Shown here: piece after piece, positions 5,263 through 10,942 of the stretch
How the letters are laid out: each line of letters begins with the position of its first letter
Numbering within the stretch: position 1 is the stretch's first letter
Sequence record: NC_019710.1
Length of the DNA: 40,710 nucleotides
Strand: one strand, 5' to 3'
Source: Enterobacteria phage HK140
Made by a program: the position numbers and the translations under genes
Notes under the pieces: generated by a model
Database searches by the model: none
Seen by the model: the letters and a program-made list of their open reading frames with translations, nothing else
Told to the model about the DNA's origin: nothing

Positions 5263-5589
5263 ATGGCGATAGATGTTCTGGATGTAATTTCCCTCAGTCT
5301 GTTTAAGCAGCAGATTGAGTTTGAGGAAGACGACAGGGACGAGCTGATCACGCTGTACGCCCAGGCCGCTTTTGACTACTGCATGCGCTGGTGCGATGAA
5401 CCAGCATGGAAGGTTGCGGCTGATATTCCTGCCGCCGTTAAGGGCGCCGTTCTGCTTGTCTTTGCTGACATGTTTGAACACCGGACGGCACAAAGCGAAG
5501 TGCAGCTTTATGAGAATGCAGCCGCCGAACGCATGATGTTCATTCATCGCAACTGGCGCGGTAAAGCCGAATCAGAGGAGGGCTCCTGA
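5263..5589 (+). CDS. Head-tail connector (gp6-like)
   Basis: 108 aa, first gene after the capsid gene; typical small connector protein position. Confidence 0.55.
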   Translation: MAIDVLDVISLSLFKQQIEFEEDDRDELITLYAQAAFDYCMRWCDEPAWKVAADIPAAVKGAVLLVFADMFEHRTAQSEVQLYENAAAERMMFIHRNWRGKAESEEGS

Positions 5590-5825
5590 TGGAACCAGGA
5601 CGATTCAGGCACCGGGTAAAAATTCTCACCTTCACGACTTCGCGCGATCCATCTGGTCAGCCGGTTGAATCGTGGACAGGTGGCAACCCGGTCCCGGCTG
5701 AGGTAAAGAGGATCAGCGGCAGAGAGCAGCTTTCAGGCGGCGCGGAAACGGCGCAGGCAACGATTCGCGTCTGGATGCGCGCAACGGAGCGAGTGGATAA
5801 AAAAGTGGGCAAAAATAGCTTATGA
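5589..5825 (+). CDS. Short head-tail adaptor-like protein
   Basis: 78 aa; N-terminus GRFRHRVKIL resembles GKLRHRITLQ of the head-closure protein at 6021; start overlaps the upstream stop. Confidence 0.4.
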   Translation: MEPGRFRHRVKILTFTTSRDPSGQPVESWTGGNPVPAEVKRISGREQLSGGAETAQATIRVWMRATERVDKKVGKNSL

Positions 5826-6020: not shown

Positions 6021-6353
6021 ATGCAGGCCGGGAAATTGCGCCACAGGATTACTCTGCAGGAGCCAGTAAAAGTGCAGAACCCGACAACGGGAGCCGTAAT
6101 TAATACCTGGCGAGATGTTGCGACTGTCCGGGCCGAAGTTTCACCATTGTCAGCGCGTGAATTTATTGCTGCGCAGGCTTCTCAGGGTGAAATAACCACC
6201 CGTATTGTTATTCGCTACCGTGCCGGAGTTACCAGAAAACATCGCATCTTGTTTCGTGGTGCTGTGTATAACATCCATGGTGTTCTGCCCGATCCAAAAA
6301 GCGGACGTGAATACCTGACGCTTCCCTGTTCTGAGGGTGTTAATGATGGCTGA
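6021..6353 (+). CDS. Head closure / head-tail adaptor protein
   Basis: 110 aa with the RHR-ITLQ N-terminal motif typical of phage head-tail joining proteins. Confidence 0.55.
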   Translation: MQAGKLRHRITLQEPVKVQNPTTGAVINTWRDVATVRAEVSPLSAREFIAAQASQGEITTRIVIRYRAGVTRKHRILFRGAVYNIHGVLPDPKSGREYLTLPCSEGVNDG

Positions 6354-6885: not shown

Positions 6886-7247
6886 TTGCCCCTATTTTTT
6901 CTGTTTGCGCGTCGAGTCCTGAAGTCACTGACTTACTCGGAAGCAATCCGGTAAGAATTTATCCTTTCGGAATTCAGGACGACAACGTGGTCTATCCCTA
7001 TGTGGTCTGGCAGAACATCACCGGTTCTCCAGAGAACTACATTGCCCAGCGCCCTGACGCAGACTTTTTCACGCTGCAGGTGGATGCATATGCCGACACC
7101 GTGGATGAAGTGATTGCCGTGGCTACTGCGCTGCGGGATGCCATTGAGCCGCACGCGCATATCACGCGCTGGGGCGGACAGGAAAGAGACCCAGAAACAA
7201 AGCGCTATCGCTACTCATTCGATGTTGACTGGATAGTCACTCGATAA
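6882..7247 (+). CDS. Tail completion / tail terminator-like protein
   Basis: 121 aa immediately upstream of the major tail protein; overlapping start and stop. Confidence 0.5.
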   Translation: MIAPIFSVCASSPEVTDLLGSNPVRIYPFGIQDDNVVYPYVVWQNITGSPENYIAQRPDADFFTLQVDAYADTVDEVIAVATALRDAIEPHAHITRWGGQERDPETKRYRYSFDVDWIVTR

Positions 7248-7270
7248 ACGTATTATTCAACCACCGGCCT

Positions 7271-7295
7271 TGAGCCGGTTTTTTTATGACCGGAG
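7271..7295 (+). terminator. Intrinsic terminator
   Basis: Hairpin CCGGC-cttga-GCCGG followed by TTTTTTT. Confidence 0.65.
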
Positions 7296-7301
7296 ATAAC
7301 A

Positions 7302-7802
7302 ATGTCTGTATTGACGCAAGGTACGCAGCTCTTTGTGCTCGTAAAAGGCAAGGTGAGCGAAGTTGAATGTATCACTGCATTTTCACCCGGCAGCAATCCG
7401 GCTGACCAGATTGAAGACACCTGTCTTTCTGAACGCTTTGATCGCAGCTATAAGCGTGGTCTTCGAACGCCTGGCACAGCATCACTGACGCTTAACGCTG
7501 ATCCTAAAAATACCAGCCACATCATGCTCTACAACCTGTCCATTTCGGACGACGAAGAGGATCAGGACCTGACCTTCGCGATTGGATGGTCAGACGGAAC
7601 CGCATCGCCAACTGCGGCTGAAAATGGTGCATCCGGTGCAGTCGATGGCCTGGTGCTACCTGATAGCCGCACATGGTTCGTATTCAAAGGCTATGTGTCC
7701 GACTTCCCATTTGATTTTTCAGCAAACACGGTTGTTTCTACTTCTGCATCTATCCAGCGCTCCGGCTCTGCTGTATGGGTGCCAAAAGTCGTGACCCCAT
7801 AA
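7302..7802 (+). CDS. Major tail (tube) protein
   Basis: 166 aa, directly upstream of the G/GT chaperone pair, as in lambda V. Confidence 0.7.
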   Translation: MSVLTQGTQLFVLVKGKVSEVECITAFSPGSNPADQIEDTCLSERFDRSYKRGLRTPGTASLTLNADPKNTSHIMLYNLSISDDEEDQDLTFAIGWSDGTASPTAAENGASGAVDGLVLPDSRTWFVFKGYVSDFPFDFSANTVVSTSASIQRSGSAVWVPKVVTP

Positions 7803-7840
7803 AATCAGGGCGGCAACGCCCTTATTAATCAGGATTAATA

Positions 7841-8326
7841 ATGAAATTAACACTTGATGCACTCAAGGAGTCCGGCGCGTTTACCGGTCGCCCGGTTGAG
7901 AAAGAAATCACCTGGACGCAAGGCGATAAAAAAATCACCGCGACCGTGTATGTTCGCCCGATGGGTTATCACACAGCAACGTCCGATGTGCTGGCTTTTG
8001 GTGGTAAGGTCGATGGTGTGGCAGGGCGTATCGCCGCATCCATCTGCGATGAACATGGTAAACCCATCTTCACCCCGGCTGACATTACTGGTGAGGCAGA
8101 TCCTGAACGTGGTGCACTGGATGGCGGCCTGACGGTAGCACTGCTTCTGGCCATTCAGGAAGTTAACGATCTGGGAAAGACTTCGAGCTCAGCGCCGAAG
8201 ACGAATTCTGGTGCGAGCTCGTCCTCAACGGAATCGGAGGCAGAACAATCGCCGAAGCGCGGGAAGTCCTCTCATTCAAAGAGTCCCAACTCTGGGCAAA
8301 GTACCGGGAACGATACGGGAGTCTGA
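7841..8326 (+). CDS. G: Tail assembly chaperone G
   Basis: 161 aa between tail tube and tape measure; contains the slippery heptamer G GGA AAG at 8173-8179. Confidence 0.8.
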   Translation: MKLTLDALKESGAFTGRPVEKEITWTQGDKKITATVYVRPMGYHTATSDVLAFGGKVDGVAGRIAASICDEHGKPIFTPADITGEADPERGALDGGLTVALLLAIQEVNDLGKTSSSAPKTNSGASSSSTESEAEQSPKRGKSSHSKSPNSGQSTGNDTGV

Positions 8327-8502
8327 ACCCTATGTTGCGGGTTGAGTGGGGTGCCGGGCTGGTGAGCAGCATGATAGCCAACGTTAACAGAGACCCCAAG
8401 CGCCCACCATTCAACCCGACCGATTTCACACTTCACTTTACCAAAGTCAAAGCTGCTGATGGACCAATCTCGTTAGAGGAAGCCAGAGCCAGCTGGACAT
8501 AA
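7841..8502 (+). CDS. T: Tail assembly chaperone GT, made by a programmed -1 frameshift at 8173-8179
   Basis: The -1 frame downstream of GGGAAAG is open to TAA at 8500-8502 and encodes DFELSAEDEFWCELVLNGIGG...ARASWT, a lambda T-like sequence. Confidence 0.75.
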
Positions 8503-8521
8503 TGCCGCCAACGGAGAGTTT

Positions 8522-10942
8522 ATGGCTTCCAAATCACTGGGCACGCTGACGATCGACCTGATTGCCAAAGTGGGCGGTTTTGTCTCAGGCCTCTCGCAGG
8601 CTGAGCGAGCTTCACAAAAATGGCGTAAGCAGGTAAAGGAGGATGCCGCTGCCGCTGCAGCTGCCATGACCGGATTCGCAACAGCAGTCGGGGCTGCAGC
8701 CATCGGAGCCGGAGTGGCGGGGTATAACCTGCTCAAAACCACTTCACGTCAGATTACCGAATCAGACCGCTGGGCAAAGTCACTTAACATGTCCACGCAG
8801 TCCCTGTTAGCCTGGCAATATGCTGCAGAAAAAGCAGGTGTTTCCGGCGATCAGATGGCCGATATCTTTAAAGATGTCGGAGACAAAATCGGTGATGCCG
8901 TTCTTAATAAATCTGGTGAGGCGGTCGGTGCGCTGGACGCTCTGGGTTTGTCGGCTAAGAAACTGGCCGGAGAATCTCCCGACAAGCAACTCCTGGCTAT
9001 CAGCGACGCACTGGAGAAAGTTAAGTCCAACGCCGAGAAGACTACCATCCTGGAGAGTCTGGGTAATGACCTGTCAAAGATGCTGCCGCTCCTGGACAAT
9101 GGCAGTGAAAAGCTGCGTCAGTATATGGATGCCGCGAAGAAGTTTGGTGTGGCGCCCGATGACGCAGATATTGAAAAGCTGGTCAGAGTCAACGCCCTGT
9201 TTGAGGATATGGAGACGCAGGTCAACGGCGTCAAAATTGAACTTGCTGCAGGGCTCGCCAGCGTAGATTTGAGTGGGCTCCAGAAGTCTATTGGAGATAT
9301 GGGGGATGTATTTAAAGACCCGGCTGTTATTCAGGGTCTGACTGATCTGGTTGGTGGGGTAGTGGACCTTGCCACCTGGCTGGTAAGGGTAGGAGCCGAG
9401 GCCGGAAAGCTGATAGACCAGTACAAAGGTGGGAGTTCGGTCGGCCTGAATGCCTCCATTCCAGAAATTGAACGGCGCATCAAGAACCTGAATGCAGATC
9501 TCGATGATAAAGGCATACTGGCGAGTTTCAACAGAATAGGTATGGACGTATCCGGTAAGGAGGCCGAAAGGGCTGAGCTCCAGAGGCGACTGGCCTTTTT
9601 GAGAAACTCCCAATCTACTCTACCGAAAATAAAACTGCCCGAGCCAGTCAAAACAAACTATACCCTTGGCGCCGGGGAAACAAACGGTAAGCCGCAAAAA
9701 AATACCTCTGGTCAGAAACTGGATTCAGCGTTTAAAAGCGCTGAGCGCAGTTACATGCGTCAGATTGAGCTGATCGATACCACCGGCAAAAAAACTGCTG
9801 TTGTGACCGAGCAGCAAAAACTGCAGTTCGATATAGCTGACGGCAAGTTGCAGGGGCTTAACGAAACCCAGAAGAAACGACTTGCGTCTCTGGCTCAGGA
9901 AGTTGATCGCCTTAATGCCGTCAAAAAAGCTAATGAAGAAAACGCGAAGGTAGCGGCGTTCGTGGCAAATCTGCAGGAGCAGAACGAGAATGCACGTGCA
10001 GATTTGGGCGTGGATATTCAGGGGGCCGGACTCGGTGACAAGCAGCGTGAAAGGCTGAGGGAAAGGCTGAGTATAGAGCGCAGTTATCTCGATCAGCAGC
10101 GCGATCTGCAAAAGCAGTATCAGTCAGGAGATATCAGCCAGACAGTTTATGACCGCGAAACCCAGGCATTAAAGGATGCACAAGCTGAGAGGCTGGGCAT
10201 CCAGGAGGATTATTACAGTCAAATTGATGCGCTGCAGTCTGACTGGGTGACTGGCGCCAGAGACGGTCTCGCTGACTGGGTAGATGATTCAACTAACTAT
10301 GCGACGCTGGCGGCGGACGCTATGAAAAGCGCGCTTTCCGGTATCAGCAGCAATATCGTCGACATGCTCAACGGCAATAAAGCGAGCTGGAAAGACTGGG
10401 GTGTCAGTGTTCTGAAAATCATCGAACAGGTGATGGTTAACATGATGATCGCCAATGCAGCCAGCTCGATAGGCTCATTGTTCGGTGGTGCCGCATCGTC
10501 TTCCGCCAGCAGCGGTACTGCGATTCAGTCCTACGGGGCGAGCCTGCAATTCAACGCCAAAGGCGGCGTTTACTCTTCTGCCGATCTCAGTCAGTACAGT
10601 AACTCTGTCGTCAGCTCTCCAACACTGTTTGCCTTTGCCAAAGGGGCCGGATTGATGGGGGAGGCTGGGCCGGAGGCTATTATGCCACTGACCCGCGCCG
10701 CTGACGGATCGCTGGGCGTGCGTGCTATGGGAATCTCAGGCTTAACACCGGGTGGTAGTAGTGCTCCTCAGGTCAGTATTCAGATTGATGGCAATGGGAA
10801 TACCCAGACTCAGGCTAGCGGTGGATATGAGCAATTCGGGCGGGAGGTAGGTAGTTTTGTTGATCGGCGATACCGCGAGTTGATAGGCCGTGACCTTTCA
10901 CCCGGTGGCGCGGTCTGGAATCTGGCAAAAGGAGGGCGGTGA
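8522..10942 (+). CDS. H: Tail tape measure protein
   Basis: 806 aa, coiled-coil rich, downstream of G/GT. Confidence 0.9.
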   Translation: MASKSLGTLTIDLIAKVGGFVSGLSQAERASQKWRKQVKEDAAAAAAAMTGFATAVGAAAIGAGVAGYNLLKTTSRQITESDRWAKSLNMSTQSLLAWQYAAEKAGVSGDQMADIFKDVGDKIGDAVLNKSGEAVGALDALGLSAKKLAGESPDKQLLAISDALEKVKSNAEKTTILESLGNDLSKMLPLLDNGSEKLRQYMDAAKKFGVAPDDADIEKLVRVNALFEDMETQVNGVKIELAAGLASVDLSGLQKSIGDMGDVFKDPAVIQGLTDLVGGVVDLATWLVRVGAEAGKLIDQYKGGSSVGLNASIPEIERRIKNLNADLDDKGILASFNRIGMDVSGKEAERAELQRRLAFLRNSQSTLPKIKLPEPVKTNYTLGAGETNGKPQKNTSGQKLDSAFKSAERSYMRQIELIDTTGKKTAVVTEQQKLQFDIADGKLQGLNETQKKRLASLAQEVDRLNAVKKANEENAKVAAFVANLQEQNENARADLGVDIQGAGLGDKQRERLRERLSIERSYLDQQRDLQKQYQSGDISQTVYDRETQALKDAQAERLGIQEDYYSQIDALQSDWVTGARDGLADWVDDSTNYATLAADAMKSALSGISSNIVDMLNGNKASWKDWGVSVLKIIEQVMVNMMIANAASSIGSLFGGAASSSASSGTAIQSYGASLQFNAKGGVYSSADLSQYSNSVVSSPTLFAFAKGAGLMGEAGPEAIMPLTRAADGSLGVRAMGISGLTPGGSSAPQVSIQIDGNGNTQTQASGGYEQFGREVGSFVDRRYRELIGRDLSPGGAVWNLAKGGR

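Follow-up and report, generated by a model that had tools for sequence, protein, structure and literature searches.

The stretch of DNA analysed here (the window: 40,710 nucleotides of Enterobacteria phage HK140, NC_019710.1) almost certainly encodes counterparts of G and T in a lambdoid tail module of the HK022 type, with the G-T fusion protein (GT) predicted to be made by a programmed -1 slip at the heptamer G GGA AAG. Four observations made in this analysis carry the interpretation: the architecture of the locus, the family membership of both protein parts, the conservation of the slip site at the nucleotide level, and a switch of coding frame at the heptamer. Together they support a lambda-type G/GT -1 frameshift at the tail chaperone locus. 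The feature is already known, as the same product is annotated in the near-identical record of phage HK022, and there is nothing new in it for the window. The G/GT frameshift is a textbook case of recoding that sets the ratio of two chaperones for correct tail length. Recognising it avoids calling the T frame a truncated 'hypothetical protein', a mistake still present in several related records and in RefSeq annotations of prophages.

Architecture of the G-T locus

The features of the locus are collected in Table 1. In the ORF that begins at 7841, the codons around the slip site are CTG (8171-8173), GGA (8174-8176) and AAG (8177-8179), and with this codon phase the heptamer reads as X XXY YYZ in the 0 frame, as had been proposed from a first reading of the sequence. 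The -1 frame is open from 8167, two codons 5' of the heptamer, until the TAA at 8500-8502. The earlier statement that this frame is open to 8502 was therefore correct, and a stop straight after the heptamer, which had been named as evidence against a frameshift, is absent.

Table 1. Features of the G-T locus and its surroundings (positions in the window).
Feature	Position	Strand	Remarks
Major tail tube gene	7302-7802	+	Lambda-like tail tube protein (Phage_TTP_11, 219.8 bits); GenBank gp12, major tail subunit; directly upstream
0-frame ORF (G)	7841-8326	+	161 aa, 16.6 kDa; HK022 gp13; residues 1-113, conserved chaperone domain
TAA in -1 frame	8164-8166	+	Upstream bound of the shift window 8167-8326
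Open -1 frame (T frame)	8167-8502	+	
Slippery heptamer G GGA AAG	8173-8179	+	Putative site of -1 tandem tRNA slip
T-domain segment	8179-8502	+	HK022 gp14; 107 codons and stop, -1 frame
gp13 read-on tail	8180-8326	+	0 frame; residues 114-161, 48 aa, Ser-rich (16 Ser)
15-bp hairpin	8184-8221	+	RNAfold, about -24 kcal/mol; 4 nt 3' of the heptamer
Tape measure gene	8522-10942	+	Pfam Tape_meas_lam_C (lambda C-terminal domain); GenBank gp16; directly downstream

The predicted fusion is join(7841..8179, 8179..8502), in which base 8179 is read twice. It comprises 113 + 107 = 220 residues (24.0 kDa), and its predicted translation passes from ...VNDLGK to DFE... at the junction. The recipe originally given for the fusion, 7841-8178 joined to 8179-8502, has to be corrected: the two segments form one contiguous sequence, which yields gp13 without any change of frame. 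No ATG, GTG or TTG codon occurs in the -1 frame between 8167 and 8331, the earliest being located at 8332, and both the conserved T motif EFWCELVLNGIGGRTIAEA and the T-frame tryptic peptide DFELSAEDEFWCELVLNGIGGR are encoded upstream of this first possible start. We consider it nearly certain that the T domain would be produced solely as the C-terminal part of the predicted G-T fusion. As anticipated, this product is missed by an ORF track, which shows only a 56-aa ORF (8332-8502) in that frame.

The genes run in the order tail tube, G, T and tape measure, so that on the assignments given in Table 1 G and T occupy their canonical place. The heptamer by itself is unremarkable, with GGGAAAG occurring 13 times in the whole window when both strands are counted; the improbable part is the configuration. 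The overlap of the two reading frames (8167-8326) is 160 nt long and contains a single in-register X XXY YYZ heptamer, GGGAAAG. The chance expectation for this overlap is about 0.2 slippery heptamers in register, whatever their type, and about 0.003 copies of GGGAAAG, and the probability of a 112-codon open frame in random sequence is about 0.005.

Across 7200-8600 the window shares 99.9% identity with phage HK022 (AF069308, NC_002166), 99.4-99.7% with mEpX2 and mEp235, and 100% with prophages of E. coli QL57EC and YZ_2_2. HK022 has effectively the same G-T locus as the window, and the two phages have the 220-aa fusion in common at 100% identity. Over the first 25 kb, 72% of the length aligns with HK022 at 97% identity and a coordinate offset of +44; judged by this alignment, the window is an HK022-like mosaic and not the HK022 record itself. 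In AF069308, gp14 (HK022_14) is a CDS joined from two pieces and described as 'presumed to be expressed as the downstream part of a translational frameshift product', and in NC_002166 the start of gp14 is the base matching position 8173 of the window. Full-text literature searches found no open paper that discusses the HK022 G-T site itself. The primary paper on HK022 gp13 and gp14 is reportedly that of Juhala et al. from 2000.

Protein families and comparison with lambda

The G part of the fusion matches Pfam PF16459 (Phage_TAC_13) with 116.9-117.9 bits (gathering score, 28.8). The match covers residues 6-109 and spans the full profile (positions 1-98 of 98). Among PHROG families, the G part matches phrog_1749, 'tail assembly chaperone', with E = 2e-56. 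The T part matches Pfam PF06223 (Phage_tail_T) with 35.2 bits against a gathering score of 25.9, over fusion residues 146-215 and profile positions 2-68 of 73, as well as phrog_337 and phrog_5297 (tail protein). A phmmer search of the fusion against the PDB sequences returned no solved structure with E <= 1, and a single-sequence AlphaFold model of gp13 was unusable (mean pLDDT, 46).

Phage lambda agrees with the window in heptamer, register and -1 direction, and its site is likewise located between the tail tube and tape measure genes. Its G-T proteins match Phage_TAC_2 and Phage_tail_T, the latter with 52.6 bits for lambda GT, and the T parts of the HK022-type and lambda proteins thus have the Pfam family PF06223 in common. 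The lengths differ: T comprises 107 residues in HK022 and 144 in lambda, and the 0 frame continues past the slip for 48 codons in HK022 gp13, compared with six in lambda G. When the T part is compared directly with lambda gpT, BLASTP gives a marginal similarity (E = 0.022, 22% identity over 55 aa). Comparison of an alignment of T domains (A1) with lambda T by hhalign gave a probability of 2.4% and an E value of 0.019. For the G part, BLASTP revealed no similarity to lambda gpG (E = 49); the lambda gpG family in Pfam, PF06894 (Phage_TAC_2), was not matched, and Phage_TAC_13 was the only family found.

From these matches, the upstream ORF is predicted to work like gpG but is placed outside the gpG sequence family Phage_TAC_2. 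The description of the downstream polypeptide as lambda T-like, which formed part of the original prediction, holds at the family level, given a Phage_tail_T score above the gathering score; pairwise, the resemblance to lambda gpT itself is marginal. The related claim of a lambda-type tail module is justified for the architecture and several of the genes, but not for every gene, as the assignment of the G part to Phage_TAC_13 illustrates.

Slip-site conservation and change of coding frame

A tblastn search of 50,697 phage records with the fusion matched 75 records, 60 of which showed at least 80% query coverage in two pieces in different frames, at identities down to 35%. The hosts of the matching phages include Klebsiella, Pseudomonas, Vibrio, Halomonas and Synechococcus. 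Altogether, we examined about 170 related loci from phages of Enterobacterales, Pseudomonas, Halomonas, Vibrio, Acinetobacter and Synechococcus, in which a slippery heptamer, most often GGGAAAG, recurs at the same junction with the exceptions given below, and the site deserves the label 'conserved' that it had been given. All of the 12 phage loci inspected by hand have a canonical heptamer at the junction: GGGAAAG in E. coli F467, 733R5, Klebsiella ST16-OXA48phi5.3, D3, SC_8, Yong-L1-251, QHHSV-1 and fEg-Aba01; A AAA AAC in PAJU2 and PP9W2; and C CCA AAG in Vibrio pVa-3 and VPBES.

A wider scan of GTDB genomes and IMG/VR with the T-domain alignment A1 yielded 160 further loci, many of which are closely related, so that the following counts do not represent independent events. 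A script that required a canonical heptamer, in register and 7-15 codons before the invariant T-domain Trp, was positive for 143 loci (135 GGGAAAG, three GGGAAAA, three AAAAAAC, one CCCAAAG and one CCCAAAA). Six of the 17 loci missed by the script have a canonical heptamer by eye (three GGGAAAG, one GGGAAAA and two AAAAAAC), giving a total of 149 out of 160. The sites at the other 11 loci are non-canonical: six G GGG AAG, two G GTA AAG, two G GCA AAG and one G GGG GAA. Not every member of the family, therefore, permits perfect tandem re-pairing. This census of how rigidly GGGAAAG is kept in gammaproteobacterial and other phages, and of the variant heptamers that replace it, has modest practical value.

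The change of coding frame was analysed in a set of 59 non-redundant sequences with identical spacing, 58 of which have GGGAAAG and one GGGAAAA. The Gly codon is GGA in every sequence and the Lys codon is AAG in all but the one with AAA. The third base of the preceding codon is always G, whether that codon specifies Leu, Ser, Pro, Ala, Met or Val, while the third positions neighbouring the slip site are freely variable. Such constancy of the two codons and of the base before them indicates selection at the nucleotide level, as expected of a slip site. In the 45 nt before the heptamer, the entropies at codon positions 1, 2 and 3 of the 0 frame are 0.86, 0.60 and 1.54 bits (n = 59); in the 54 nt after it, the corresponding values for the -1 frame are 0.64, 0.46 and 1.17 bits (n = 59). 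Up to the heptamer the variable third position is that of the 0 frame, and directly after it that of the -1 frame. After the heptamer, the mean pairwise amino acid identity is 66% in the -1 frame (T), 43% in the 0 frame (G read-on) and 45% in the +1 frame, which served as a control. A stop codon is encountered within 19 codons in none of the 59 sequences in the -1 frame, compared with 32 in the 0 frame and 31 in the +1 frame.

Pseudomonas phage D3 (orf17/orf18), PAJU2, ST16-OXA48phi5.3, Yong-L1-251 and QHHSV-1 contain true homologues of both parts, at 35-62% identity. In these D3-type relatives the slip site is at the same codon as in the window. PAJU2 has A AAA AAC as its heptamer and the Vibrio pVa phages have C CCA AAG; the 0 frame reads on for 0-37 aa. 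Most of their records give two separate genes with no frameshift annotated. In Acinetobacter phage fEg-Aba01, an unrelated G-type chaperone is joined to a homologous T domain via the same GGGAAAG, an arrangement which, as far as can be read from these proteins, shows that G-type and T-type modules are exchangeable exactly at the slip site.

Could the -1 ORF be a separate gene, starting at the ATG at 8332 and encoding a 56-aa protein without any frameshift? The ORF finder does list 8332-8502, and relatives are often annotated, several of them automatically, with a stand-alone 'tail protein' or 'hypothetical protein'. We regard this explanation as highly improbable. Initiation at 8332 cannot give the most conserved part of T, because that part (the stretch beginning with EFWCELVLNGIGGRTIAEA, with 15 invariant columns in A1) is encoded within 8179-8331, before any start. 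This same stretch has the codon periodicity of the -1 frame and is free of -1-frame stops in all 59 relatives, and the first possible start varies in position from one relative to another. Even less probable, to the point of being negligible, is a single ancestral G-T gene that has been split by mutation or a sequencing error, leaving a pseudogene or an artefact. A mutated gene would also give a two-piece tblastn match, but it would not account for about 170 loci from many genera that share this -1 architecture and have a slippery heptamer at the corresponding codon, nor for the presence of this architecture in the viable sequenced phages HK022, mEpX2, mEp235 and D3.

A change of frame could also arise at the RNA level, through transcriptional slippage of RNA polymerase rather than on the ribosome. 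Some relatives use A AAA AAC, with a seven-A run able to support such slippage, and the present sequence data do not tell an RNA-level from a ribosome-level shift. However, the runs within GGGAAAG consist of three identical bases at most. Known transcriptional slippage tracts are far longer than this. Moreover, the conserved X XXY YYZ codon register and preceding third base suit tandem tRNA re-pairing instead, and the shift at lambda's identical heptamer is ascribed to the ribosome (PMC4493119). Polymerase slippage thus seems extremely doubtful to us, and we favour a slip of the ribosome.

Proposed mechanism and elements around the slip site

The ribosomal slip, its efficiency and the roles of both proteins are what we infer by analogy with lambda. 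Most ribosomes would translate 7841-8326 and release the 161-aa chaperone gp13. In a minority, the tRNA-Gly in the P site would re-pair from GGA to GGG and the tRNA-Lys in the A site from AAG to AAA, both moving back by one base, and translation in the -1 frame from 8179 to 8502 would then give the 220-aa G-T fusion. In lambda, the slipping minority amounts to a few per cent. If the analogy holds, the G domain, which is common to G and GT, would bind the tape measure protein, the T domain would recruit the major tail (tail tube) protein, and the slip would hold GT at the low, fixed proportion to G on which correct tail assembly depends. G and GT would not be expected to stay in the virion. Mature lambda virions contain neither G nor GT, and the mass spectrometry of virions suggested in the original prediction is therefore no fair refutation test. 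Levin et al. reportedly ascribed the shift at the lambda G GGA AAG to the ribosome in 1993, and the lambda G/GT frameshift and the roles of its products are said to be the subject of papers by Xu, Hendrix and Duda from 2004, 2013 and 2014. A summary of the G/GT mechanism is available (PMC4493119), according to which a fusion at a low fixed ratio to G is needed for tail assembly in both lambda and TP901-1.

The read-on tail of gp13 has no Pfam match, and the length of the corresponding segment ranges from 0 to 48 aa in relatives. Among the 59 relatives, conservation of the 0 frame in this region does not exceed that of the non-coding +1 frame. When the T frame was randomly recoded with synonymous codons, 13% of trials still had a 0 frame open over 48 codons or more (P = 0.13). 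Conservation at the level of the +1 frame, the frequent stops (32 of 59) and this P value argue against a functional read-on tail. A read-on of 48 codons past the slip is atypical when compared with lambda, but it is compatible with chance and needs no special explanation.

The hairpin downstream of the heptamer was also rejected as a conserved stimulator: the folding z-score of 8180-8260 is -1.4, pairing across the 59 relatives is at the level of shuffled sequences (66.8% of cells, compared with 65.5% in shuffles), and RNAalifold found no consensus helix at this location in the 59 relatives. The hairpin is built largely from two GAGCTC (Glu-Leu) palindromes and is probably an incidental by-product of these.

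In E. coli dnaX, a -1 slip of the same tandem class, with tRNA-Lys on AAG, takes place on A AAA AAG and is accompanied by an upstream Shine-Dalgarno-like element and a downstream hairpin. Compared with dnaX, the window has a hairpin 4 nt downstream of the heptamer and AGGA 12 nt upstream, but neither is supported as a conserved feature. That the slip in the HK022 lineage is tuned by local elements absent from lambda, namely the 15-bp hairpin and a Shine-Dalgarno-like element, or that the Ser-rich tail is functional (dual-coding), is unlikely; the tests argue against both the tuning elements and the dual-coding tail (no covariation; P = 0.13; 0 frame similar to the +1 frame). The Shine-Dalgarno-like AGGA/GAGGT, 9-12 nt 5' of the heptamer, falls on Glu-Val codons that are themselves conserved. 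At this upstream Glu codon the enrichment of GAG is only weak (32 of 50, compared with 150 of 324 elsewhere; P = 0.02, uncorrected for relatedness). The window's own Glu codon at this position is GAA, where GAG would create GAGGT.

Apparent exchange of G-type and T-type modules at the slip site

In Acinetobacter phage fEg-Aba01 (L013) the T domain is homologous to that of HK022, with 44% identity, and a tblastn search with the HK022 G part found no similarity to the chaperone encoded upstream. The junction between this chaperone and the T domain consists of the heptamer found in HK022-type phages, GGGAAAG, at position 704. Because the chaperone is dissimilar, the T domain homologous and the heptamer shared, the slip site appears to be a breakpoint at which G-type and T-type modules get swapped.

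The heptamer itself is not invariant. At the homologous G/T junction, sites departing from the X XXY YYZ pattern occur in the Pantoea-type loci L067, L126, L129, L133, L138 and L150, as well as in L084 and L095, L089 and L093, and L087, the variants being G GGG AAG, G GTA AAG, G GCA AAG and G GGG GAA. Following a -1 slip at these variants, perfect re-pairing is possible for one of the two tRNAs or for none. The -1 T frame is unbroken in all of these relatives, in which the efficiency or mechanism of slippage may differ.

Fate and annotation of the T frame

In Vibrio phage VPBES (L012) the -1 (T) frame is open from 818 as far as the fetched sequence extends, and enters the tape measure gene annotated from 1043 on. 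Relative to its counterpart in Vibrio phage pVa-3, the VPBES T ORF has apparently lost its C-terminus and stop codon, and seems to be fused in frame to the tape measure protein.

We surveyed annotation in E. coli prophage loci H9–H15 (e.g. L015, 840-1501) and phage loci L004–L011. In RefSeq/PGAP and many phage records the 0-frame chaperone is the sole annotated product, the T frame being either blank or occupied by a short 'hypothetical/tail protein' begun at an internal ATG. In automated annotation, this family is systematically left without its frameshift product.

Features of the window outside the G/T junction

Coordinates of features in the window and in related phages
Feature	Source	Position	Strand	Length
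Head-tail adaptor-like ORF, HK022 gp7	Window	5589-5825		78 aa
Head-tail adaptor-like ORF, HK022 gp9	Window	6021-6353		110 aa
GGGAAAG examples	Window	561, 1018, 3828, 4044, 24828, 25912	minus
Chaperone + T domain	fEg-Aba01 (L013)	366-1033
-1 (T) frame	VPBES (L012)	818-1509

Base 1 of the HK022 record (40,751 bases, as compared with 40,710 in the window) corresponds to window position 45, so that window coordinates are shifted by +44. Over the first 25 kb of the window, alignment to HK022 is limited to 72% of the length, with 97% identity there. The window is a mosaic HK022-like genome or prophage, permuted differently from the HK022 record.

The gp7 and gp9 ORFs share 29% identity (BLASTP, E = 4e-9) and are head-tail adaptor-like paralogues, the former looking truncated at its C-terminus. 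Between them sits a 65-aa ORF, and the whole arrangement looks like a fossil mosaic recombination joint.

GGGAAAG occurs 13 times in the whole window (5.4 expected), a count attained by none of 100 dinucleotide-preserving shuffles; nine of the 13 copies lie on the minus strand.
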